A stretch of 64,000 nt of DNA from Polymyxa betae A26-41 (lineage: Eukaryota > Protista > Endomyxa: Phytomyxea): assembly GCA_003693705.1 (NCBI GenBank), contig RBZT01000198.1, positions 1-64,000 of the forward strand. The letters run 5' to 3'. The position numbers and the translations under genes were made by a program. Of this stretch, positions 1 through 50,310 are shown in pieces. Within the stretch, counting starts at the first letter, position 1. Each line of letters opens with the position of its first letter. The notes below the pieces were generated by a model that saw nothing but the letters and a program-made list of their open reading frames with translations, had not been told where the DNA came from and searched no databases.

Positions 1-455
1 CACGAATTACAGCTCGTTATCAACTCTGATTTATTCCAGCTCGAATCCCAGGACCCAAATCCAGCTCGGTCCGTACGGATGCCGTACGGTCCTCTCGGGG
101 GTCGAGCCTATTAATATTAAGGTACGTCGTCATACTTCCATCAGGTTCGCATCTTTGTTATGCATCAGACTTATGCGTCCGTCATCAGGAGCCATTGCGT
201 GCGCAGTTCGTCAAACTGCGTACGCTGTTTTTTGGGAATTCAGGATTTTATATTATTATTTTAATAAATCTGATACAGCTGCCTGTCAATGCATCGGTGA
301 CAGTTGCTCCATCCGGCAAGGATGTCAAGCCTGCCAACAATGACTACATCATTTCGTGTACTGAACTACAATCTCCGTATCGGCGGTCAACATCTCCTGG
401 CATTTCGAACCCAAAAACAGATCAGTCTTTCGGGACATGGTTTCGGGGCCCCTGA
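1..455 (+). other. Possible 3' part of an unknown spliced gene or degraded coding relic next to the Rep element
   Basis: Candidate GT-AG introns 122-168 and 220-278 would join an open frame (...GVEPINIK|TYASVIRSHCVRSSSNC|LPVNASVTVAPSGKDVKP...WFRGP*). No recognisable family, and other readings are possible. Confidence 0.2.
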
Positions 456-886
456 AGTCGTCAAGGAATGAACTTAATCTAAAACTGCGGGCTTTTACAA
501 AATTTTCAATATTACCATTCAATGAGCGGAAAAAAATTAACAATATACTGCAGTTTAATCTGAAGTCCGAATATTGTGCTGTGAGTGTGTGTCCGGATCT
601 GATATACGGATATAAATCTCACCGTCAGTGATGCTGCTGCCGTCTCTCCATTTGGCATGAGCGTGAAGCTATCAGCTGTCAGTTTTTGTGCTTTTGCAAG
701 GTCGTCTTTGCGGTTGCTCATGTGAAATTTGCATTCCGCAAGCATTTCTCCTTCCTCAGACGATCCGCAACACTCATCTTCCGAATCATCGAAATCCGAG
801 TCCAGGCGTCGTTTTCCTAAAACACTCACAGTAGAATCAACATCCGTGCTGCAAACCAAACATGACGATGTCGAAGGCGAATCCAT
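349..886 (-). CDS. Hypothetical ORF downstream of Rep (acidic tract, LGKRR NLS-like motif); 3' structure uncertain
   Basis: ATG at 886 (MDSPSTSSCLVC...VLGKRRLDSDFDDSEDECC). The frame is open to 512. A second frame (349-543, RGPETMSRKT...) could be joined by splicing or be a relic. Confidence 0.3.
379..565 (-). repeat. Left arm of a diverged inverted homology (partner 2964-3148)
   Basis: Reverse complement of 385-471 aligns ungapped to 3054-3140 at 63/87 nt (hand count). Similarity extends to CTTCAGATT at 557-565/2964-2972. Confidence 0.8.
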
Positions 887-1108
887 GTTAACAACAACGA
901 TCAAATTGAATAATGAACCAAAAACGGATCCGGTTACCACGACGTCAACATACTTACCTTGACGAAATACTCAAACATACCGCCATGCACAACAGCGACA
1001 CTTAACAACGTCATAGTGCATGGCACATCATATCTGCAGGGCACATCATGACGAAAACAGTCAACTTGGGAACATAACGAACACCAAAAATAGCATCCAC
1101 GAGGTGTA

Positions 1109-1234
1109 GTTAGGTAACCCTATTATCGACCAATATAGTTACCTAACACATCACCCCTGACTATACAGTTACCTAACTACTTATAAACAATATAGAGTTA
1201 CGTAACTACTTTCGACAATGTAGAGTTAGGTAAC
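1109..1234. repeat. Five palindromic GTTA(GG/CC/CG)TAAC units at 28-30 bp periodicity (iteron/origin-like minisatellite)
   Basis: Cores at 1109-1118 GTTAGGTAAC, 1138-1147 GTTACCTAAC, 1168-1177 GTTACCTAAC, 1197-1206 GTTACGTAAC and 1225-1234 GTTAGGTAAC. Confidence 0.9.
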
Positions 1235-1245
1235 TACAACTTTAT

Positions 1246-2610
1246 TTATTCCACATTAGACGGGGAATTCACACCCGAATCAACCGCAAGGGCCGCAAGA
1301 TCGCGAGCAGCAACGACGTCTTCGTCTATCGAAACTTGGGTAGAGGCCACATCCTCGATCGGACAAACACGAACAGGTACGTAACAACCGTCGTCGCCAA
1401 CAGTCAAACCCCAACCATCAACAACGGCCTTAATTTTAGCAGCCGCGCGCGACCGTACATCGTCGATACGACCGCATCGAACACAAGCACAAAACTGGGC
1501 GGTTCCAGCACACCGCTCTCGCAGATCGACTTCGGTAAATCGTCGATGGATCGGCAGACGTTGCCGGTCATCCGTATAGCATTCGTCGATAGAATAATTC
1601 GACGTCACAATCGTGTGACTCGGCCTGATCTTCCAATATTCCTGTTTAGGCTGTCCCATGAACGGATACACGTCCGCCCATTTCTTAATCCAGGATGACT
1701 TGATATCGCCGGGTTCGATCTCTTCCACGAACGTCACCGGCTCGTCATTGTAGCCACTCCACCATTTGTTAGAGTCCTTAAGAAAAACGTCGGTCGGGCG
1801 GAACGATTTCCAAACGAAATAACTTTTTCCAATATCGCCTGGACCCACAATCCAGACGTTACGATCGCGGGGATTACCGGGCAGGACCGGCAGCTGACGG
1901 CGGCCCATGAATTGCGTCCGATCAATCAGCAGCGCGTTCGCATGACGCATCCGCATCGAGGCGTCAATGGAATCCCAGTCACCGCGACGACAGGAGGCGA
2001 ACGCATCCTGAGCCAGAACCTTGAAGGGTGTCTTGTGGGCAGGGCGGGGGGGACGAACCCCCCGCTCCTCCCCGTCCCACGACGGATTAGCTCCCTCTTG
2101 GGACTGCTGTTCAGAGCCTTTGGTACAGTAGCAAAAGCAATTCCAACGAGAATGCTGATAGGTCGTCTTCTTGCCACACGGTAACACATTAGTGACGACG
2201 TCAAAGTGCGCATCGCCAATACCAAGCGCAGCCTTGACAGTACGACCACGCTTGCCGCCCGTCAGCTCCAGATAACATTGCAAATGCAGACCTTGCGTCT
2301 GCGTCACCTCACGCCCAAACACGACAAACGAAACCTATTACATTACTAAATTACTGCCTTCCTCAATGTTAACAACTTAAGACGTTACCCAATCGTTGTC
2401 GAACAGACTTAAAAACTTTGTAACACGTTCGACGTGGGAGCCCTCATCGTAATGTATAGTCACCAGCCAATACTTCGACTGTTTGTTGAGAACCGGAATA
2501 CCCTCCGGATTCAGAGCACCCGAGCCACGAGGGCGACCTGCACCGGGACGCCGACCACCTGCACCACGACGACCATCCTCTTCAGCATCCACATCAACAA
2601 ACGCCGACAT
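1246..2610 (-). CDS. rep: CRESS-DNA-virus-type replication initiator Rep (HUH endonuclease + SF3 helicase), 2 exons: 2610-2389, 2334-1246; 436 aa
   Basis: Motif I YWLVTIH, motif II LHLQC, motif III YCTK, Walker A GPGDIGKS, Walker B VEEI, motif C IVTSN, Arg finger IHRRF. A 54-nt GTAACG...TAATAG intron (2335-2388) holds the three in-frame stops. AATAAA overlaps the stop codon. Confidence 0.93.
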
Positions 2611-2963
2611 ATTATAAAAATAACATATTTTGATTACCTGTTCGCATTTTGATTATCTGTGAGGGGACCCCCATTCAGGAAATCAAAAGTGCGTGACAGG
2701 CACGAAGGGCCGCGCAGAGGCCACGCACCCGATTTCCACCAATCAATAGTATATCTGTTTGGTATAATTTTGGAGTCGTATTCGTTCGGGTTTTTTGTCC
2801 AGTGCTTGTTTGTCATACCCGAATGGGGGCCAATGCTCCGTTTCGCATCCGAAGCGATCCCATCTCGAAGCCTTGTGCTATGATACAGCACCGCCCGTTG
2901 AATCCAACAATTTAGTTGAATCGAATGGAATCCAATCCAATCCAGATCTATCAACAATAATCG

Positions 2964-3148
2964 CTTCAGATTCAAACTGTGGTTAATCGTTGATTCTTTG
3001 TTCATTGAATGGATATATTGCCGATCTGTGCGAGTTAAGGTTTCAAATGAAGTTTATGTCTCAATAATCTCAGGGGGCCCGAGGCCACTTCCCGAAAGAC
3101 TTATCTGATGTTGCGCTCTAATTGCGAGAAGTTGTTGACCGGGCCGAT
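2964..3148 (+). repeat. Right arm of the diverged inverted homology (degraded paralogous copy)
   Basis: Reads LNNLRGPEATSRKTYLMLRSNCEKLLT versus LDDFRGPETMSRKTDLFLGSKCQEMLT in the left arm. Its upstream part has a stop/frameshift in that frame. Confidence 0.8.
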
Positions 3149-3238
3149 TACTATAGCAACAAGGCAATTTAAAACGTCAAGCATTTAAGTTGTTCACTTT
3201 TGACAACGATGAACTTTATTATATTGTAGGCCGGTTTA

Positions 3239-6200
3239 TCATCCGTCAACTTCTAACAGCAATACTACACCGTTGAGAATCCATTTCGCAGGTGGCGCCT
3301 TTGTCCTTAAACCTGCTGCGAACACATATGTTGGTCCGCGTCGTTGTGTCTTGTACACCGGGCAGTTATATACACCCGTTTTTTCTTGCTTATCGGCAAG
3401 AATGGCACGACAGTTCATGACAGGTAATTCCATGAACATCTCTCTAGGCAGCGAATCTTCCAGGATACCCTGTTTTGTGTTCCAACGAGCGCCGACGATC
3501 TTCAGCCCTGATATGTAGGCGCCGTCACGAGCTGGACCATCGATTTGTTCAGCTTCATATCGAGTAACCTCCGTCTGAATCACGAGCTTGTCCAGTTCGA
3601 GATTGTTCCTTTGCGCTGTTGTCTGCATAATCGCCGTCAGGAACGATTGCGGATTAAAGAAGTATGGCAGCTGGACGACGAATGGCAGATTGGTAGGACT
3701 ATCGACCCATCTCTGTAGTTGAGCAATACGCAGAAGTAGATCCTCGGTCCAGGTTGCCAGATCTCGAAGGGATGGATATGCCACAGCGGCCTATAAAAAC
3801 ATTTAAAAAGCTAGATAACATTCAAGGTATAAGAATTACCCAAATTGTAGGAACCCGATTCAAGAAGAGAGACTGCTCAAGAGCTTCCATTCGGGCATTC
3901 CTGGTGAGAGCACCAGATAGACCCATGTCGAGCTCAGTAATTGATCGATTAATCTCATCAGTGAGGATATTCATACGAACACATTCTTGCATGAACACGT
4001 TCTGATATGGACCACGTTCCTCTTCGGTTAGAGCGGCGGAAATCTCCTCCATGTCGAAACGGATATCTCGGAACCTGTCTTGGAGCTGCTCCAGAACCTG
4101 CTCGATACGGGACTGGCTGCCTCGACCGCCATCTCCACCGCTTGCGCCTTTTGGTTGTAATTCCATTAAATTCGCAAATAAGTCACTAAAATTAGTGAGC
4201 ATGGTCGTCATAGCAGACTGCCGACGAACTTACTTTGATTCTTGAGTACGAACTCCAATTTCGGCATTCGGATGTAGACCGAACAGAACGGGACTTTCGA
4301 ATTGAAGTTCGCGATCAATATACGTGAAGTATTCGTCATATGGTAGTACAGGAGGTGCCCTGAAATGTTCCTCTCCTGTAGGTTCAACATATGGCAGCAG
4401 CTCCATCTCATCAAATAGCTCATCACGCATATAAAATTTAAGATACGTTGAGCAGAGCAAACGATCCCAATCGTCAGTGATGTGACCACCATACATGATC
4501 TCACCAAAGATATAACGAAGATCGTCCCATGGCACCTATCATAGACAACGTTTAGAATCTGGCAACGAGACGCGGACCTCCGTCTGAACCTTTTCGCCAG
4601 CTGATTCCAGATAGTTGGAGAGAACCGTTGCCGAATCCATCAAGTCGCCGGTGCTAAACGGGTATATGACGTTCCAACCTTTCGGGCCGAATTTTTTCCG
4701 CTCCAGAACGACTGAGTGGAAATGGCACAACCCGAAGATGATGCTCTTAATCTTCGGATCTTTGAATTCGAACTCATCCTTATCAAAGTTTGCAAACGCC
4801 CTACATCGCTACAGTTGAATATCTTTTCAAAAACAGATGTGATGAGGAGATATCGAACCGTTTTAGGTTGGATTTAAGACCTTGTGGTGGTTCATTGGTC
4901 AGTTTGATGGATCTTTCCAGGAGACCGATCGGGATCTTATCGTTAGGTTCGGCAGATAGGAACACGCGGAAGTCCTCGTGTGATTTCTGGATGGCGAAAT
5001 CATCGAGTTTCTTCTCGAGCTCCAACGTCCATTTCGGCATCAGATGGATATTCTCTAATATTACCCAATATCCTTCCTTATGTGCAGCTTCTAATCGAGC
5101 CATGGCGATAATATCCTGGCCTTGACCCATAGCAATCCTATGAACCTTATTGGCGAATCCCAACTTCTTGGCCAACGTCATGACAGTCGCTACAGGATCG
5201 GCACCGGCCGACAATATAAAGAATCTGCAAAAGTATTAGTGCAAGGAGCATATATCATGTAGTAAACTGACATTGGTGTGGTTGGGTTGCTATCGTTGAA
5301 TGAAGTCTCCAGAACATCAAAGAAAGAATTCTGGGCGTCCAGCTCGGTGTACGCCTTACCATTGGGCAGGGCGGTCGACACGAAATTGTTGATGGCAATG
5401 GTCATACGATCAGGACGCATGCACTTAACCACGAGCAGCTTCATGAATGGAGCCGATTCGTCCAGTTTACGCCAATCCAATGGGAGCGGTGTTGATTCCG
5501 GACGTGCCTTCAGGTACCAGTCTTTAAATCGGTTCGGTGAGGCGATCATGTCTTTAGCCAGGGCCTGGAACCCTTCCAGATCGATCAATGCTTGAATGGA
5601 CGCCCATGAACTTGATGATAAAAACGGGAGCGGGTTTTCAACTCCAATCTGTTCATGGCTATTAGCATTGAAGGCGAAACCCTAAGCCCCAAAAATCTTT
5701 GAAACCCGAACTTGAAAAATGTGGCAGATGTTATGAGGGTCCGTGATAAAGTAAAAGAAATGTGCGGGATAAAATGGAAACATGCGTGAGTGACAAAAAA
5801 CTGGAACCTTCTTGATGTCGCTAATTAAGAACTGGAAATGATCGCGATCGAAAGCGACGCTTAAGACGCCCCTCTCAGCCAAACGGAAGACGAGTTGCGA
5901 CGAGAAAATTAATTTGTGCTTCTCGAAGAGACCGCGGCAAACCCAGGTGAAGATAATGATGCGGATCTTCTCGGTGAGGTTCTTGACCCGATCCTTGGTA
6001 TTATCAGCTTTGGTCGATCGATCGATAGCCTTGTAGAAGAACCCAACGAATGCATCTAAAGAAAACCGATACATATGGTCGATTAATTGCAAGGAATTGA
6101 TGAGGAAGTAGATCCAGGACGCCTCAGCCGCCACCATTCGAAATTCGTTTCTCGTCTTATTGATGGCGATTTCCTGCTCCTTGGCGGCATCGACCTTCTT

Positions 6201-19999: not shown

Positions 20000-20432
20000 T
20001 ACACAAATCGACGCGCAATCCCTAGTGTTATACGAGGTGTTGCAATTGTATACAAATAGAGGATAATATCGAATTATGGCATAAACGGGCACGATATTGC
20101 ATTTTATGTGTACCTGTAATATATAACCAGAAAGCCATCAGACGGGATAAATGTGTTTACAATCTGTGATTATTGATTCCCCCATTATGGACTGGCTTAG
20201 CAAATGGTAGACATCGTAAATTCACATTGCTTCAAATCATACGGAAAGACATTCAAAGGCGATAGCATTGCTTACACTTGCAAAATACAATCATGTTTTG
20301 GATTTTTTCATTCCAAAAATTTCAATAAAAACATGATAAAGTTTTAAAAATTGCGGATTGGATTCCGCAGTCTCCGTTGTTGATTTCTGTTAGACCTTCG
20401 ACATTTTTTGCTGACTGATCTTTTGTTCGAAG

Positions 20433-20993
20433 ATGGGTCAACCATTACCCAGCTATGACGATGAGGACAGATCTGGTTCTGATTATGAATCGCCGTCCAG
20501 GGATCACGAGCTATCTAACTCGGACTCGGATGCCCCAGAAATGGTGACGCAAGAGAACAGTAAACGATTAGCTCGACTACAGCGCAGCTCTGAAATGCAG
20601 TCGCAACGATACCTGAAAGAGCAACGAAAGAAACGTCTTCGAGCGTTAGCAGAACAAATACAAAAGTCATCTAAAGAGAAGATCGAGGCCGCAAAATCAC
20701 AGAAACTATCTGGCGATATCATCCAATGCATTCAAGATGTTCTTGAAGATCATAGTGCGGTCGAGGAGAACCAAGAGGACGATAATTCCCATTCTTTACC
20801 AGTGCCAAGACCGCAACGCATCGTTAGAGACGGATTTGAGCTACAATCACTTGCCTCAGCCAGAATCTCCAGTCAATGTGGTAAAGACGCTCTAGAGGTC
20901 TACAAGTTGGACGCAACCCGACATAAACGGTCAATAACCTATCGCAGTGCTCGTCCAGCTGCTCAGTTTATTGCTGAAAGGTTGCATCAATAA
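20433..20993 (+). CDS. Charged 186-aa protein, possibly U3 snoRNA-associated (Bud21/Utp16-like)
   Basis: Intronless ORF with acidic SDSDAPEMVT motif followed by a basic coiled coil (KEQRKKR). The stop overlaps AATAAA. Family call is tentative. Confidence 0.6.
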   Translation: MGQPLPSYDDEDRSGSDYESPSRDHELSNSDSDAPEMVTQENSKRLARLQRSSEMQSQRYLKEQRKKRLRALAEQIQKSSKEKIEAAKSQKLSGDIIQCIQDVLEDHSAVEENQEDDNSHSLPVPRPQRIVRDGFELQSLASARISSQCGKDALEVYKLDATRHKRSITYRSARPAAQFIAERLHQ

Positions 20994-21057
20994 ACAGAAA
21001 GTATTCGTTGCTAATTTTCTCTACTGTCAAAATTTTATAAATTTTCCACATTAAATT

Positions 21058-22684
21058 CTATGCGCCGTTCCCATTCTTGTCTTCGCTCCAATCATCAAAT
21101 AGAGAAATACGCGAGATGTCCTTAGCGGCTTCGTCGCGAGTGTTATCCGGAACATTATCGGCATTGCTAATGTCATTCTGGATAACATATGTAGAGGTCA
21201 ACCCCGTTTCTGGTGCTTTCGCATCGTTAAAAGCAGGCCTAGTTCTCTCCTAGATAAAAATTTTAAACGTTCCGCATGATCGCAAGTCAGAACAGCATGA
21301 ACTCACCTCCTTTTCATCATCAGCTGGTTTCGATTCGTTGCCACGAATACCCATTTTGTCATTGTAATTGAGGATTGTCTAATAAACAACTCAGTGATCG
21401 ACTAGACTTTTGTTGAAACGTACCCAATCAAATACATAGTCGACCTCGTAACTCTGCCTAAAAAATAAATCACGAAGTAAACGCCTCAAATAGGCATAGT
21501 CCTGTGGAAAAGTCTGAATATTGGAAGCTGGGAGTGAATAGATATTGTCATACAGGTTTATCATCGAAGCGCAAAGTTCTGCAGTAATTCATGTAAGTGG
21601 AGAACTCGGGAGGAAATCCTCTGCACAGCACTTCGATCGGCGTTGACATTTTCTTCTCAGATATTTTATCATATTTCTCTTTTTTGGTGTTCGCCTAATC
21701 ATCGTTGAGCCAATGGGTGTCTGGTGATTAGCTGATTACCTTCAAGCCTTGCCAAGGCAAACTACCTCGGTTGAAATACATTAGCAAGAATCCAATGGAT
21801 TCGAGATCGTCCCTGCGTGATTGTTCGATGCCCAAATGGGTGTTAATTGACGCATATCTGGCAGTTCCTGTCAGCGATTTGTGTTCAAGCTAAAGAGCAT
21901 AAGTTAGAAATACCCGCAGAAATCAAAAATTCCAAATTACATAAGGTATGTGTTGGTGGGTCTTAGGATCTCGGTATTTCTTTGCAAGACCAAAATCGAT
22001 GATATAGATCGTATTGCATCGCTTTCCAAGTCCAATCAGAAAGTTATCGGGTTTGATGTCTCGATGAATAAAATTTTTAGCGTGCACATATTCGACTCGC
22101 TACGATGGAAATGAACAAAAATGCCATTTGGTGACAGAAAGTATACAGCTAGTAATTGATCTGCAATCAGAAGCACGGTCTTGAGTGAGAATTTTCGACC
22201 ACAGAAGGTGAAAAGATCTTCCAGTGATGGACCCAGAAGTTCCATCACCATGATATTGAAATCGCCTTCCTTTCCGAACCACTTGACGTTCGGGATCCCA
22301 ACTAAACACATCTTGACAAATGAAACAGTCATTGAAGAAAACTCCCCTACTGGCTCCTTGAAGAATGCGATATAACTTAAACTCATAAGCAAGCTGAGGA
22401 TGTCTGGTTTTGATCGATTCCTAAACGTGAAGTTGAAAGATATTCAGACAACCTCCTCTCTAGTAAACTAACAAGTTTGACACCGAATTCTTCTCCGGTG
22501 TGTATATGTGTTCCTAAGCGAAAAGGCAATCGGAGACTGAAGCAACAAAACAGCAAGTCGCCACTCGCGTACCAAGATAAAGGTCCCCAAACGAACCCGA
22601 GCCAATTTTCTTCCCCAGTCGATACTTGCCACCGACTCTAAGCTCAAGTCGGGGTCGCCTCGACCTCGACGCAGTCGACGACAT
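21058..22684 (-). CDS. CK1: Casein kinase 1 (delta/epsilon-like), multi-exon
   Basis: [73 protein letters not shown]. Stop TAG at 21058-21060. Confidence 0.95.
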
Positions 22685-23107
22685 GGCCGGTTGGGACTAT
22701 CGCTGAGCGACGACAGAGATGTGCTGGTATTCAGAAAGGAGTTCAACTGAATATGGAGATTATCTTATCATACAAGGTACAAGTCCGCACAAATCACCAA
22801 GCATGCGTTAGGTCACAGTTCAAACTTCTCTACCACCAACAATACCTGACTTTTCATGGAAAATCAGACATGACCGTTGTATGATTTTATGACGAATCGT
22901 TTTCAATGATGCTTCGAAAATTAAACTGAAATGGTATCTGTCATTGAAATTATCGAATAGCACCCAATGAATAAGTTACAACGACAGCGTCAGAAATATA
23001 TGAGCTTTAATAAATGCTTCTCAGGTATATACAACAACGACTATTGTAGTAGGATAAAGATTTTTTTAAATGTACATAAATACACTGTACATTTCGTATA
23101 GGTAAGA

Positions 23108-24125
23108 TCATGAAGGAGATGGCTTTCTTCTGGTCGGTGACAGTACCGACACAGACTGCTTTGAATGCTGAGCTTTAGGCAAGCATTTCTGCGATAATGG
23201 ATGCTCTAAAACATCCAACACCTGCTGGCAGACGTATTCAATTGCGAAAGGCTCCGCATCTTGAAAATGGTTCCTAACAGCAAAACCATCAGGTTAATCG
23301 TGGACATCTTCTGAGCTTTAACACGTACATATACCAACGAGAATCAACGCTTAGACGTTCATTAGGAGGCAGCGACATATTCATCCAAATGATCGCCATG
23401 TGGACGCAAGCGATAGCGATAGTTTCGCTAGATTCAACAGTGCAAATTGGGGATTTCAGGGAGTCGTTAGCGAATCGTCCCGCAAAGTCAATGATATTCT
23501 TGATCTGATCACCATACGATGTCACACATCTGGCGATTCTCTCGATATGTTCATGGGGACTCTGTGGACACAAGTTGAAACCGATCGCCTGCAGGACCAG
23601 GATTTCGCACGACAGCGTTCGGTCTTGGAATTCGACGAGCTGGGGCGACGTCTTCGATAGCTTCACTTTATTCCTGAGATAGAGGATAACTTCTGCAAGG
23701 TGTAGGACAGTGCAACGCTGCTCTTCGAGCTTGCCAGCTAGGCATATACAGGCTGCTATAACATGGTACTGAACGAAGACGTATTTTCAGCAATACAATT
23801 CGTTCGAAATTCGACTAATCAACCTTATCATATCTAGAGTTCATAGGGAACACCATGTAGAATGTATGCAGAAGAGTCGAAGCCGATACAAGAATGGCTC
23901 TATCGAGCTTCAGCATCTTCACCACCTGGAATAGTTTTTAATGAAAAATGCCACCGGATGCATTGATCCAACACCAACATCAGACATGAATCCAACCATA
24001 TATTGTCGTAATCGCGATTCCATCTCCATCGAGATGCCAATCTTTCGCGATGGCGAGTCCAGGATTTGTTCGCGGGAAAACCGGGGCGGTATTCCACGCT
24101 TAACCGCCTGGCGACGACTGGCCAT
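23108..24125 (-). CDS. Cyclin T/K-family transcriptional cyclin, multi-exon
   Basis: FSREQILDSPSRKIGIS...ESRLR, AACICLAGKLEE, EILVLQAIGFNL, FANDSL. Confidence 0.85.
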
Positions 24126-25439
24126 GGTGGCGATCTGGACGGCCTTACGCCGTCTCTACCAGGTCGATTGTGGCCAAAATGATCCAGAACGGGCACGTGT
24201 TTGGCAGGCCCAGGCCTACCCCAACCGACCCGGCAATGTCAACTGCGTGAAAGCAAATGGACGTTTGAAGGTCAGAATAGGCAGGCCAAGACCCAGCGTA
24301 CTGTTCGATGCAATCGATGTCGTATGTACGGCTGAGCAGATAGAAATTGGATGTCCACTATGACCGAACTATCACCAGGTGAGATTGTCGTTTGAAACAG
24401 GACGGCATTTCTGTTGGCGATAAAACTGCTTGGAACTCGAAATCTGGGACAGTTTTCTTGCAGTTCTATTGTGTTGGTGATTTAACGGAAATGGTCTATC
24501 AAAAAGCTGCAAAACGTCTTCATTGACAGATAATTGTGATATGCAGTATGCGCCAATATATCTGCTATTTCCCCTTTCTTGTAATGAGTTTTATCTGCAC
24601 TCCTTGTCTCTTGATATCCGCCGACTGTCCAATGGCAATTAACCTCATCGCCTGCAGTGAAATTCTAATTGGATATTGATGAGATTTGATTGAATGATGC
24701 CGTCGGATTTTAGAGATCGGCAATAAAGCTCTGCAATCGACAAAACTGTTCAGGGTTAAACGAACCGGTTATCGGCGTATCTTTTGGACGCTCGTTGGTT
24801 TCCATTTTTCCTTACTTTTTAGGGGCAGAAAGCTCCATCAGTTCAGCGAATCGTGATCTTTACCAAAATTCACTAAAAACGGCAATGGCAATACTCGTGC
24901 TCAACCAATGCATCCGATTATAGAGAACTTCTCCATTGGAAGGGCTGTTTCGATTATACGACATTCATTCACCAAAGTCTAAAGGTATCGAGAGTGGTCA
25001 GAAAACACCAATGACCGCTGGGCTACGAATCGACTCAGATATGTTCTGGCGACACCATAGCTGTAGCAATCGCAATGAATAGACATAATGTATAATAACA
25101 ACACCAATCGACTTGATAGTTGTCACCGGAAAATCGCTCTACACCTGAAAGCCAGCTAAACTCGAACTTCTGCCAATATTTTTCACAAATACAACCTGAT
25201 GTTATCGGAGGATGTTTCCAAGATATCCTCTCTAAAAAGCCATTTCGAAAACCTGGATTCCGATATGAGAAATCTCGTACTTAGCCGTCGTAAAGCGAAT
25301 TGATTTACTGCGAGGATTTAGGTTATCCGTTTGTTAGAAGCCCGACTGTAGATCAAACCCTTGAGCCTTGTCATAGTCTAATTGTCTATCTGGTACCAGC
25401 TTCAGCCATCATATCAGCATATCTCGACTAGTGGAAATC

Positions 25440-26639
25440 ATGACCCTCGAACGCAATGCTGCTAACGGACCCGTCGTTCTGGTATGGTATCCCTGTCGTT
25501 ATTTGGATTCTCTCACTGATCGATGCTGGCAGGGAATGGGAAACCCTCTTCTCGACATTTCTGCCAACGTGCCCCAATCTCTTCTTGACAAATACGAGCT
25601 GAAGCTGAACGACGCGATCCTCGCCGCCGAAAAGCACCTGCCGATCTACCAAGAGCTGACGACCTCGTTCCCTGTCGACTATATCGCCGGCGGAGCCACC
25701 CAGAACGCCATTCGAATTTGCCAATGGATGATGCAGAAGCCGAATGCCACAGCCTACATCGGATCGGTTGGTGACGACGAGTTCGGCAAGATCCTGGCCG
25801 AGCGAGCCCGCTCTGAAGGGGTCGCCGTCCATTACCACGTTGAGAAAGACGTTCCAACCGGGACATGCGCCGTTCTGGTTCACGACCACGAACGAAGTCT
25901 GGTTGCAAATCTGGCTGCTGCCAACTGCTACAAGCACGAACACCTGCTTCAATCGGATATAGAAGCGGTTTGGAGCCAGGCTAAGATTTTCTATATTGCA
26001 GGATTCTTCCTAACGGTGTCACCCGTGTCCATCATGCATCTTGCCAAGTTTGCGGCTGCCAATGGCAGAACGTTCGTGATGAATTTGGCGGCTCCTTTCA
26101 TCTCCGAGTTCTTCAATGGGCCCTTGTCGGAGGCGCTTCCGTACTGCGATATCGTTATCGGCAATGGTCTGTCTGCGTACTATTGATCATCAACAAGTGT
26201 ATCTGAAGCGATTGGATAGAGAATGAATCGGCCGCCTATGCGAAGGTATTCAATCTGGAAGATAAGACCCCGGAAGGTGTCGCGGCCGCCATCGCCGCCC
26301 TGCCTTTGCAATCGCCAAAACAGAAGCAGCGTATTGTCATCATTACACAAGGTTCGTCTGTCAATCTTTTCGAAACACGTTGCATAATGTTTTGCAGGCG
26401 CTCATCCTACAATCGTCTACCAGAATGGTGCAATCACAAAGTATCCTGTCCCGGTAGTCCCCGAGAAGGAATTAGTCGATCTGAACGGTGCTGGAGACGC
26501 ATTCGTTGGTGGCTTGCTTGCCTACTTAGCAGAAGGCAAGCCCTTAGATCAAGCCATTGAAGCAGGACATTACTGTGCCGGTGTTGTAATTCGACGATCT
26601 GGATGCACTGTTCAAGGCAAACCCAATTTTAAAGCCTAA
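25440..26639 (+). CDS. ADK: Adenosine kinase (PfkB family), 4 exons
   Basis: GMGNPLLDISA, AGGATQN, PTGTCAVL, ERSLVANLAAAN, DLNGAGDAFVGG. Confidence 0.95.
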
Positions 26640-26669
26640 TCATTAAAAATTGTCCAATGTTATATTCAC

Positions 26670-29020
26670 TTAGTTTGCAATCCGCAATATCGCTGGATGG
26701 AAATGTTTCGACGTCGTATTCCTTAACAGAACGACCCTTGGAGAGTTACTGTAAAACCAAATCAGATAGCTGCACATCAAGGCAAACTAATTCGTCTCAC
26801 TTTTGTTGCTTCTGCAGAACAGTTACAGACGCGAAACCATACCCGATACCAGACCCAGCAGAGAACAGAAAGCCTCCAGCATTTATAATGGCAATAATCG
26901 GTCGGTCCGATCCAATTTCTGACAGGTCAAGACCAGACCATTTGTTGGCTTCGATGGACTTCCGATCGTCATCAGTCGACTTATAGACCAACGCGTTATC
27001 TTTGGGGACGCCACCCCATCGCATTTCAACACAAACACGAACCAATGTCTTCGGTATGCAAAACCTAGACACCTTTAGCAGAAGCTTCACGTTCAGCTCG
27101 TTTACAAACTGATCAGGTATTTTGCAGAAGTCGATCCATTCTCGAACGACCTGAATACCGGAATGGACTGAGCCTGTCTCAACGATGTCCAATTCGGTGA
27201 CTTCCTCCGAACTGATGTTCGGTTTCGAGCAATCCACAATCTGAGACCAATCCGGCAAGAATGGACTCGTAATCGCATTCGCCTCGAAGTTCACACGTTT
27301 GGCTTTCGGTGTGCGAGCATGCTTCTCAGCTTGAAGTTTGGCTTTGTAAGTAGATTGTGCAGAACAGGCAATAGTATCGGGATAATCCTCTGGGAAATGT
27401 AGAGCTCCTTCCTCCAGATATATATTCCGCCTATCATCCAATCCAATAGCACGACAGCCCTAAGAACACCTCTGAAAATTACAATGCTGGTGCATCAGAG
27501 AACGTACTGCGAAAATGATCGATTTCCAGAAGGCCAAAGCCCATCCTTTTGGTACGACCAAATCCCAGCCCGACATTTTGTATGATGATGTATTGGATAG
27601 TTGCCGCTGAATAAGAAGAACAGGAACATCGACCTCAGCGGTATCTGAAACCAGTAAAAATCAAATCTATAGACTGCATGATGAGATTGCCTACTTGATA
27701 ACGAGGAGGTCGCTTGATCTCTGCCCAGTTCAGTCCATAGACTGCTGGTAGAAAGCTCGGCTGGCCAGTCGGAGATGAATTCTTCAAGGCATGGCTCGTC
27801 CAAACGAATGCGATTATCGTTGCTATCCGGATAGGAAACCTTAATATGTTGAGCTGTAGAGAAAGATCGCGGATCAATAACTTGAAGACCGAGACAGACA
27901 CCACGAGGAAGTGCTGCTTGAGAACGAATCGATGATAGAATGTTCCACATCTGTTTCAATTGAGATTTGTCATATTCGTGTAATCAAAAGTATACCTTCG
28001 TTTTCATTTCAGAGCAAGAAGTTGCAGGACGCAGACAGTTACTTAGAATTGATTGACAGCGAGAGCCCAACAGCTCGAATTTCACCAAATCAACAAGCTT
28101 AACAGCCACGATTCCGTTTAACTCGAAGCATTCGGTGATGAGATTGGAAATGTATTGAGAGATTGCAGGATGGATCCAGATCCACAACGAACGATTGTTG
28201 CTTGAGTTATCAGATGGCGGATTCCATAATAAACTACATGGACCGATGGCTCCAGATGGGAACTCGCCCTTCTCATACAGCATCACAGTTCGGCACCGAT
28301 ATTCATCAGCAAACGTTGTAAAGTGTTTTGGTAGAAACGGCTTCAGATGCGATATAATAACATCGACTGGACCATCGAGCTGCAAGCAGCTATAGGATGA
28401 AGCGTCGTAAAGCGTAGCAAAATGCTGAGCTGCTTTATAAGTAGCACGCTGACCTGTTTACAATTGAGCATCTCTTAACATGGAATTCAAATAGATGACC
28501 TTTATCTGTTGGACGAACAGCTAGACGATATCTCCATATATTGTCCATATGCATTCGCTTGGCATGCCACAGATGGGTTTCCAGCCAGACGTGTTGTCGT
28601 GATCGTCGCTCATGATCCTGCATCATACGGGATGGACGACGACGTTCGCGGCGCTTGGGCTTGTTTGCAGGCTTCATGGCCTGCTGTTCCATTTCACTTT
28701 TAGCACGAGCTCGTAATCGAGCTGGTAAGCGGTAGACATTATGAGAACTTGCACGACGTCGCAGATGTCGAGGCAGGTCTTGTGCTGCACGTTTGTTGCC
28801 GCCTACTTTATTCTCAAGGGCAGATTTTAGAATGGAGATCTCCCGTAACCGTGCCTGAGCAAATTCTTCAACGGCGATCGTCTGCATTGGCATCCATCAG
28901 TTTTCAATCGTGATAGATAATGGAAAGGGCGACCCTGGGAAGTGACTGTGCCTGAACCGACGCAGCATCTCGATCTAGCTGATGGCTGACCAAATGCTTC
29001 CGACGTTCTTTGCGATTCAT
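26670..29020 (-). CDS. POP1: RNase P/MRP subunit POP1, multi-exon
   Basis: FAQARLREI, LPRHLRRRASSHN, WLETHLWHAKRMHM, LWIWIHP, FPEDYPD, TPKAKRVNF. Confidence 0.92.
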
Positions 29021-48802: not shown

Positions 48803-49069
48803 ATGGTGCAACAGATTGACCTCAAACCTGAGCACATCCTGGAAGTTACGAAGCACAAAATGATGCTACAAGATATAGAGGAGAAGTCCTGGGAGCGTTT
48901 CCTGAAAGTCATTAAAGAGGATGAAGATCGCTTACTCGAAAATGTCGATCTAGCTATCAAAACGATCGACAATGCTGATTTACCCTATACACAGAAATGG
49001 TTTGTTACTTCAGCATGGGCGAAGAAATATGCACATCATTTCCCCAAAGCACCTGAATCCGAGCGCTGA
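48803..49069 (+). CDS. Small orphan protein, tandem paralog 1 (88 aa)
   Basis: Shares KHKxM...W.xFL...IKxI/VxxAxM/LPYxxKWFVTxxWxKK with paralogs 2 and 3; AATAAA ~45 nt downstream. Confidence 0.85.
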   Translation: MVQQIDLKPEHILEVTKHKMMLQDIEEKSWERFLKVIKEDEDRLLENVDLAIKTIDNADLPYTQKWFVTSAWAKKYAHHFPKAPESER

Positions 49070-49300
49070 TTTCAAGTATCAACTGAGTGTTGCTTTGAGG
49101 TGCGTTCGACATCAAATAAAACGGCTTGCTACAGTATACTTGAGAATTCAACGATGATTTTCTAGCATATGAATAGATTATTGCTAGTTTTAGTAACTTT
49201 TACAGATTTCTTCTTGATAAGTCGATGCGTAGGTATGGGTCGAATTTCAAGCTTACGCGGGACGCAGCGGTTCCTAATTCAACCAAAGCGAAGAAATGTC

Positions 49301-49355
49301 GCGTGAAATTATTGGATGCAATTTCGCCGCGAGGAATTACTGGATGCAATATCGC
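49301..49355 (+). promoter_or_regulatory. 27-bp imperfect direct repeat (x2) upstream of paralog 2, core AYTGGATGCAAT; related ATTGGACGCAAT at 48729-48740 upstream of paralog 1
   Basis: gcgtgaaattattggatgcaatttcgc / gcgaggaattactggatgcaatatcgc. Confidence 0.45.
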
Positions 49356-49463
49356 ATGAAAAGGAAATGAATTCACCGTCTTCGTGGTAGGTCCCAGTCA
49401 CCAAGCCGTAAGCGCCAAAACTCATCGGATCTGGTTTGAGCAAGAAAGGAGATTCAAGCGAAT

Positions 49464-49718
49464 ATGACTGAACTCAAGCAGCTGAACATCGACGTCCAAG
49501 ATATGGTCGACTGCCTGAAGCACAAGATCATGGAAAGTGAAATGGAACAAGAATGCTGGAAGAATTTCCTGGAAGTCACTGGTCAGGATGAACAAACAAT
49601 GATCACAGATATCGATCAATATATCAAGGCTGTGGATCAAGCCAAGATGCCTTACATGCAGAAATGGTTCGTGACGGCTAGCTGGGTAAAGAAGCATACA
49701 CATCCCACTGAGCGTTAG
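49464..49718 (+). CDS. Small orphan protein, tandem paralog 2 (84 aa)
   Basis: MTELKQLNIDV...MPYMQKWFVTASWVKKH; AATAAA downstream. Confidence 0.85.
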   Translation: MTELKQLNIDVQDMVDCLKHKIMESEMEQECWKNFLEVTGQDEQTMITDIDQYIKAVDQAKMPYMQKWFVTASWVKKHTHPTER

Positions 49719-50046
49719 TCTCACGATATACCTTGCCGAATGCTTGTTTGAAAATCACTATTTAAAATAAAATGGATCTGGTTTTAGGATTGAAATCACC
49801 CATCAGTTCTTGTTTATCGTTGATAGGATTCACATTGGCAACTCAACAACTCCAAATTGGTGTGCTTTTAGGCGATAGCCAGAATCTGTATGAACGGCGG
49901 ACTATATAAAGCGGAATGAAGCGCTCTGAGAATCAATCGTATAGTTGAATCTCTGGACTGGAGCAAACTATTCATCAGTTATAGCAGTCGGTAAATTTGT
50001 GGTCACAATTCTTTGGATTTGGGAGCTAGCACTACAACATTTGAGC

Positions 50047-50310
50047 ATGGTGCGAGGAAGAGTGAACATTGACGTCAATGATATGATGGAGATCATGAAA
50101 CACAAGGTCATGGAGAGCGAAGTTGAAGAGAAATGTTGGAAGTCTTTTTTGAAGCACTGTAAAGAGGACGAGAACAAATTGGTCGGTGACATGGAGTTGT
50201 ATATCAAAGCTATCGAACAGGCAGACATGCCTTATTTGGAGAAATGGTTCGTCACTGCTGCATGGGCGAAGAAGCATTATCATTTTCATCCTAAAACGGA
50301 GCGCTCTTGA
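50047..50310 (+). CDS. Small orphan protein, tandem paralog 3 (87 aa)
   Basis: MVRGRVNIDV...MPYLEKWFVTAAWAKKH; TATATAAA at ~49903-49910; AATAAA downstream. Confidence 0.85.
   Translation: MVRGRVNIDVNDMMEIMKHKVMESEVEEKCWKSFLKHCKEDENKLVGDMELYIKAIEQADMPYLEKWFVTAAWAKKHYHFHPKTERS

Follow-up and report, generated by a model that had tools for sequence, protein, structure and literature searches.

Why should five short palindromes follow one another directly behind the stop codon of a Rep gene? The question is raised by one locus in the window, by which we mean the whole 64-kb stretch of DNA analysed here, and the original prediction offered three answers: Rep-binding iterons, an atypical nick or termination site, or an enhancer for the next open reading frame. 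We conclude that the array is genuine and not a product of chance, a cis-element of an endogenous CRESS-type family that is unclassified, and that it belongs to the same kind of element as the iterated intergenic motifs of ssDNA viruses. As to its function, we infer that its units are likely to be sites through which a bound protein switches the next gene, and not the start of replication.

The array and its predicted fold

1109..1234, no strand: array of five GTTA-SS-TAAC imperfect palindromes at a pitch of 28-30 nt

The five cores start at positions 1109, 1138, 1168, 1197 and 1225, spaced 29, 30, 29 and 28 nt apart, and carry the central dinucleotides GG, CC, CC, CG and GG in that order, all as first described. 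They are the only GTTASSTAAC matches in the 64 kb (five found, 0.08 expected), a number reached in none of 100 shuffles. A motif-blind search for repeated short palindromes likewise returned the array as its sole find in the window; among 20 simulated control windows, none contained a four-unit array and three contained a three-unit array. The placement directly behind Rep also held, as the stop codon (1246-1248, minus strand) lies 12 nt from core 5. So did the inverted match between 1106-1118 and 1168-1180, which turned out to be part of an 18-nt inverted pair of 89% identity. The flanks show that unit 1 is inverted relative to units 3-5, while units 3, 4 and 5 are direct copies of an extended 12-bp near-palindrome whose centre runs from CC through CG to GG.

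A neutral minisatellite grown by slippage, with the central C/G changes arising through template switching between inverted units, would diverge uniformly along its unit. Instead, the eight arm positions are identical across all five units (40/40 cells, 0/40 mismatches), whereas 32-36 of the 90 cells in the flanks (nine positions per side) depart from the majority (36-40%); this comparison is a contrast and not a p-value or formal test, because the cores were picked after being seen. The spacers give the minisatellite some footing, as spacers 3 and 4 agree at 15 of 19 positions (79%, p=0.001). The likeness of three of the four spacers proposed originally stands for this pair; it is marginal for spacers 1 and 4 (12/20, p=0.07) and not significant for spacers 1 and 3 (p=0.45), and spacer 2 is unrelated to the others. 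Moreover, in the source-like DNA run X1 no other contig covers 983-1279 at 80% likeness, so at this threshold the array is no satellite spread through the genome; a diverged array could still have gone undetected. The suggested match to a PAR-bZIP site applies to a single unit: the consensus for PAR/C-EBP-type bZIP sites, which we take to be RTTAYGTAAY, fits one unit of five, the other four having no central CG.

As a single strand, the array region is predicted to fold well (z-scores -4.3 and -4.8). Alternative hairpins had been anticipated; the fold is indeed strong but settles into one dominant arrangement, in which unit 1 pairs with unit 2 (0.97) and unit 3 with unit 5 (0.92). The unit 1:2 hairpin reaches -9.9 kcal/mol, and a unit on its own has almost no fold (0 to -1.5 kcal/mol). 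When the cores were kept and only the spacers were shuffled, folds at least as good as the real one arose in 33 of 200 sequences; the cores alone thus explain the fold, which gives no further argument for a selected hairpin. These results bear on a reading of the array as a single-strand or RNA signal, either a priming site for the complementary strand or a terminator or 3'-end element of the Rep mRNA. The fold scores would suit such a role, as would the position of the array right behind two AATAAA signals (see below). Priming of the complementary strand is also described for intergenic regions other than the origin, namely the SIR of mastreviruses and the CR-M of babuviruses (PMC10653810). 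Yet a role of structure only would not fix the sequence of the arms, and the fold follows from the cores, so that we consider this reading very unlikely.

The same hairpin underlies a second alternative: Rep would bind the cores as iterons, and the pairing of units 1 and 2 would supply the stem for a variant origin or a termination hairpin. Its loop opens at 1121 with TATTATCGAC, a nonanucleotide-like string (chance in shuffled spacers 0.01-0.13, depending on strictness) whose context resembles the origin of L021, a free crucivirus-like genome. Against this, 19 nt lie between the two cores, while 59 of 63 nonamer hairpins of free genomes (from 56 of 97 genomes) have loops of 9-13 nt and none exceeds 17 nt. 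In addition, the TCGAC of the loop recurs in spacer 4 and hence belongs to the repeat unit, and the stems are better conserved than the loops.

Rep, its neighbours and the chromosomal setting

The Rep gene and the elements around its two ends are as follows:
1241..1250, minus strand: two overlapping AATAAA hexamers that contain the Rep stop codon and, by sequence, are putative poly(A) signals
1246..2334, minus strand: Rep exon 2 (P0001, 362 aa, open)
2335..2388, minus strand: predicted Rep intron, 54 nt, GT..AG
2389..2610, minus strand: Rep exon 1, with motif I
2628..2700, no strand: three TTTTGATT-based repeats (two direct, one inverted), placed in a long imperfect hairpin or next to it, immediately upstream of Rep
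2735..2763, plus strand: weak hairpin (-2.7 kcal/mol) with TAGTATATC, two mismatches from the canonical nonanucleotide; candidate origin

Rep is an open, intron-bearing, CRESS-type gene embedded in the chromosome of a flagellated eukaryote. Exon 2 matches PF00910 at E 0.0014, which is below the cut-off, and solved Rep structures at E 3e-12; it contains HUH motifs II and III, the Walker A and B motifs, motif C and Arg finger of an SF3 helicase, and a Cys-rich C-terminal motif. An HUH endonuclease joined to an SF3 helicase is also indicated by 2,612 proteins that match at E<=1e-10 and by the PF02407 and PF00910 domains found on the relative P0154. Exon 1 shares 63% identity with the N-terminus of P0154 and 59% with that of P0156, and carries a GRPR motif that we take to be AT-hook-like. 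The intron is a prediction made with no spliced read seen: P0154 is collinear across its position, P0156 has an insert about ten residues upstream of it, and the second genomic Rep copy is unalignable at 2337-2417.

The closest relatives of Rep are three proteins, P0002, P0154 and P0156 (39-45% identity); a quick tree of 59 rows picked from 157 proteins groups Rep and these three as one clade (SH-aLRT 100). All four share the N-terminal GRPR motif and the C-terminal Cys-rich motif, and a looser Cys motif occurs in P0015, P0022, P0058 and P0059. Scans of viral contigs with P0001 and P0154 found no DNA of close relatives, and query A2 found nothing among metagenome contigs; queries A2, A5, P0059 and A6 yielded distant Reps only, and phages gave no match. 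An AlphaFold model of Rep from the four-sequence alignment was unusable (pLDDT 39).

Further Rep pieces in run X1 reveal that the genome also contains diverged copies, with Rep sequences about 84% identical to this one. In the best-covered copy, 30 of 35 differences fall at third codon positions, the 35 being drawn from 40 listed rows, with 79 further rows outside the count. The contig of the second copy extends 195 nt past 1367 toward the position of the array and then ends, which is suggestive at most. Two diverged Rep variants at 2051-2227 in the RNA-type run X4 carry changes absent from X1; other Rep copies therefore appear to be transcribed and to differ between isolates.

The window is eukaryotic. 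Datasets that contain the stretch bear five organism labels and one rhizosphere-metagenome label, which would suit a protist living on roots. The gene next to Rep encodes a flagellar outer-arm dynein heavy chain and has introns of 48-58 nt, and contigs of 34 kb and 21 kb from DNA runs of two studies (X1 and X2) span from Rep position 1368 into the dynein gene at single-copy depth. Rep is thus joined to the host gene on single contigs, and a contaminant reading fails. The array lies on an adjoining contig that overlaps the Rep-dynein contig at 1368-1396. Elsewhere in the window, 48955-50277 holds three partly repeated segments of up to 218 nt and 72-75% identity that are unrelated to the array.

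On either side of Rep and the array lie further elements:
34..277, no strand: host repeat of high copy number that directly adjoins the element on the side of ORF-A (summed contig depth about 20,000-29,000 vs about 204)
349..886, minus strand: ORF-A, downstream of the array and co-oriented with Rep, with a 124-aa acidic first frame from the ATG at 886
982..1024, no strand: perfect inverted repeat of 9 bp, with a pair of direct repeats of 15 nt at 1017 and 1035, all located between ORF-A and the array and close to the putative ORF-A start region
2753..3188, plus strand: ORF-B region, divergent from Rep; inverted paralog of the 3' part of ORF-A (70% DNA identity over 206 columns)

The ATG of ORF-A is 223 nt from core 1, and a further conserved frame occupies 352-618. 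We treated runs X3, X4 and X8, which are not recorded as RNA, as RNA because introns are skipped in them. Contigs of X3 cover ORF-A at 520-906, and contigs of X4 and X8 cover parts of it; for a paralog of ORF-A, an RNA-type contig extends past 960 by about 70 nt before it ends. A transcript start near 1030 would place the array about 80-200 nt upstream, though contigs cannot prove a start. Another RNA-type contig (depth 3.2) covers 1040-1191 and may be Rep read-through or DNA.

ORF-B contains a spliced 46-nt GT..AG intron at 3028-3073 (run X4), and no long open frame was found in its region. Examined as possible capsid genes, neither ORF-A nor ORF-B could be assigned to a Pfam family, and for neither did we find a longer homolog or a match in the atlas; the left side abuts the host repeat, which ends sharply at 277-278 and stands at about 100-140x single-copy depth in X1. 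The 3' end of the dynein transcript overlaps the ORF-B transcript on the opposite strand (2753-3240), and the two are merged in one RNA-type contig. An inverted similarity of 200 nt (379-577 and 2954-3148), first considered as a terminal inverted repeat, was dropped in favour of paralogous coding sequence, because the two segments share a peptide frame and conserve the splice acceptor. A 2.3-kb contig of X1 joins an ORF-A-like piece, matched weakly and with gaps, to an ORF-B-like piece; the interval between them is too short for Rep, and the contig may represent a Rep-less A/B derivative.

A search of 278-3200 for the canonical nonanucleotide NANTATTAC in a hairpin loop found none, only two weak variants. 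The absence of a canonical origin elsewhere in this interval speaks for the variant origin in units 1 and 2, as does the free genome L080, in which an origin does lie downstream of Rep. Iterons, too, are short repeats near an origin stem-loop (PMC9872696). Conversely, the TTTTGATT-based repeats upstream of Rep stand in the usual place of iterons and are candidate iterons or a Rep promoter, and the feature at 2735..2763 also includes a CCAAT box. No circle junction or copy end was seen at the array in the contigs, which drop rare forms. Iterons or a nick site at the array are therefore less supported than the enhancer among the three original options: the region lacks a canonical nonanucleotide in a hairpin loop, the cores are conserved better than the loops, and iteron-like repeats lie upstream of Rep. 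We regard Rep iterons or a variant origin at the array as possible but doubtful.

Palindrome arrays at other loci

If the core were a mark of Rep elements, Rep should accompany it elsewhere. Arrays of two GTTASSTAAC units occur at 19 viral loci, and arrays of three at 44 metagenome and 9 prokaryotic loci; tblastn and profile searches found Rep at none of these 72. Occurrence far and wide without Rep, as a generic minisatellite, would have told against the original prediction, as would absence from other Rep copies; half of this came true, in that the core does form arrays without Rep. Of the 53 three-unit arrays in public collections, many simply repeat one unit head to tail with hardly any change in the spacers, and in some of them CG and GG centres are mixed; together with the 0/72 count for Rep, these arrays lend weight to the minisatellite. 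Nevertheless, in those public minisatellites the spacers are as conserved as the cores, and here spacer 2 is unrelated and the arms are fixed; we judge a neutral origin of the array quite unlikely.

A different picture comes from 11 bacterial loci, which have the same core in alternating CC/GG orientation overlapping TTGACA/TATACT promoter-like sites and which support the shape of a binding site rather than noise. These promoters (L030, L042, L044, L054, L057, L060, L063, L066, L069, L073 and L075, of which L073 and L075 are labelled Omnitrophota) bear three to four alternating GTTACCTAAC operators upstream of a Pfam-less gene of about 105 aa and a PF12281 nucleotidyltransferase. Open reading frames were listed for ten of the 11 loci plus L034: all ten arrays precede the same ~105-aa gene, and the nucleotidyltransferase comes next in the one tested. 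The gene pair looks to us like an autoregulated type IV toxin-antitoxin-like operon. Since all 72 loci are without Rep and 11 arrays overlap promoters, GTTASSTAAC is a recurring operator-like shape and not a marker of Rep.

Do free Rep-encoding viruses place other palindromes in the same way? Arrays of at least three short palindromes were found in 12 of 97 free Rep-encoding viral loci and in 0/97 in each of 10 shuffles; the other 85 have none, and some of the 12 are of low complexity or near-duplicates. None of the 97 has the GTTASSTAAC core as an array, their arrays being built from other sequences, and the Reps of the loci with analogous arrays are at most about 33% identical to the one studied here. 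Five arrays in four loci (L021, L022 twice, L112 and L124) follow a stop codon by 16-316 nt and precede the next co-oriented ATG by 134-189 nt, with the nearest nonanucleotide 1.4-1.7 kb away; 7 of the 12 array-bearing CRESS loci do not have this layout. Because L021 and L022 are near-relatives, as are L112 and L124, the five arrays amount to about two independent lineages.

In L021 and L022 the core is TAGT-S-ACTA with a flipping G/C centre, and one array reads C, G, G, G, C, its outer units flipped as in the window array. The window array shares its place downstream of Rep with those of L112 and L124. The array is upstream of Rep in L021 and L022, where autoregulation of Rep would be an equal reading; L022 has a further array downstream of its Rep. 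The 8.2-kb contig of L022 comprises two related crucivirus-like genomes in tandem, with an array between capsid and Rep in each. When sets of three TAGT-S-ACTA units were searched for, 19 viral loci matched, with Rep only in three already known from L021/L022; as 16 of 18 newly numbered loci are without Rep, this motif is not CRESS-specific either. Separately, two free CRESS genomes carry GAAnnTTC-type arrays upstream of Rep (L151:342-427 and L153:1411-1450), which to our eye resemble heat-shock elements.

Function and comparison with known systems

The array is a repeated site that works out the same in either orientation and stands upstream of a transcribed gene, as an upstream-activating array would. 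Of the three options raised at the outset, an enhancer for the next open reading frame fits best on position, on arm conservation and on the analogs in free viruses, its effect on transcription being putative. We give about even chances to the specific proposal that a dimeric protein binds the clustered units on double-stranded DNA and so regulates transcription of ORF-A. Such an array would have grown by tandem duplication of a ~29-nt unit, with selection retaining the GTTA/TAAC half-sites. A binder of two-fold symmetry would be indifferent to orientation and to the central SS, so that units could flip. The binder could be a host transcription factor, for which we assume a bZIP- or Myb-like protein as candidate, or a protein encoded by the element, and the array would allow the gene behind the Rep poly(A) site to be transcribed independently. 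Intergenic repeats of plant ssDNA viruses can enhance transcription, as 14 of 105 tested did and 91 did not (PMC554758).

A broader alternative is an unclassified CRESS lineage whose Reps carry introns and a Cys-rich tail and for which the array serves as a non-canonical origin or an element-encoded switch. It would persist in the chromosome as a family of several copies, with inverted ORF-A/ORF-B paralogs on either flank and perhaps some derivatives that lack Rep, and would be more a rolling-circle transposon than a stranded virus. We think this unlikely.

The regulatory reading matters since gene control in CRESS viruses of hosts other than plants and animals is barely described. If it is true, palindrome arrays at boundaries of co-oriented genes would be a recurring CRESS promoter module distinct from iterons, and their sequences could hint at host transcription factors. 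The locus also links an unclassified Rep clade, whose three relatives are known here from proteins alone, to a flagellated eukaryote; this link rests on a multi-copy endogenous family, a predicted spliceosomal intron and mostly synonymous divergence. Our literature search found no description of such an array, nor of an endogenous CRESS element in a plasmodiophorid, though supplements of EVE surveys may list the element; the sections of PMC9615429 at hand name no Rhizaria or plasmodiophorid host.

Among known systems, the iterons of CRESS-DNA viruses (geminivirus, nanovirus, circovirus and crucivirus) are similar in being short direct and inverted motifs in intergenic DNA of an element with an HUH-SF3 Rep. 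They differ in being defined near the nonanucleotide stem-loop (PMC9872696), whereas the window array has no canonical origin beside it. Geminivirus iterons in particular measure 5-6 nt and lie upstream of Rep, as stated in the abstract of PMC12548392; the window units are 10-12-bp palindromes downstream of Rep. Enhancer repeats of gemini- and nanoviruses, such as the conserved late element, share with the array a repeated intergenic motif upstream of a gene and a proposed action through host factors (PMC554758). Their sequence is another, however, and here the host is not a plant and the array occupies the second intergenic region, between co-oriented genes, not the one containing the origin. 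The bacterial operator-like arrays have the identical 10-bp core, alternating orientation and a 26-32 nt pitch over a promoter, but they are bacterial, lack Rep and flank similarity, and are convergent. The homologous regions (hr) of baculoviruses are arrays of imperfect palindromes that are bound by dimeric proteins and act as enhancers; they belong to large dsDNA viruses and have palindromes of ~30 bp, a longer pitch and several arrays per genome, and no homology is implied. Finally, the arrays of L021/L022 (crucivirus-like, with Rep and a PF00729 capsid) and L112/L124 differ in their cores (TAGT-S-ACTA and TATA-NNN-TATA), their shorter pitch, their distant Reps and a function that is putative there, but they share with the window array the run of imperfect palindromes (three to nine) after a stop codon, within 134-189 nt of the next co-oriented ATG and far from any nonanucleotide.
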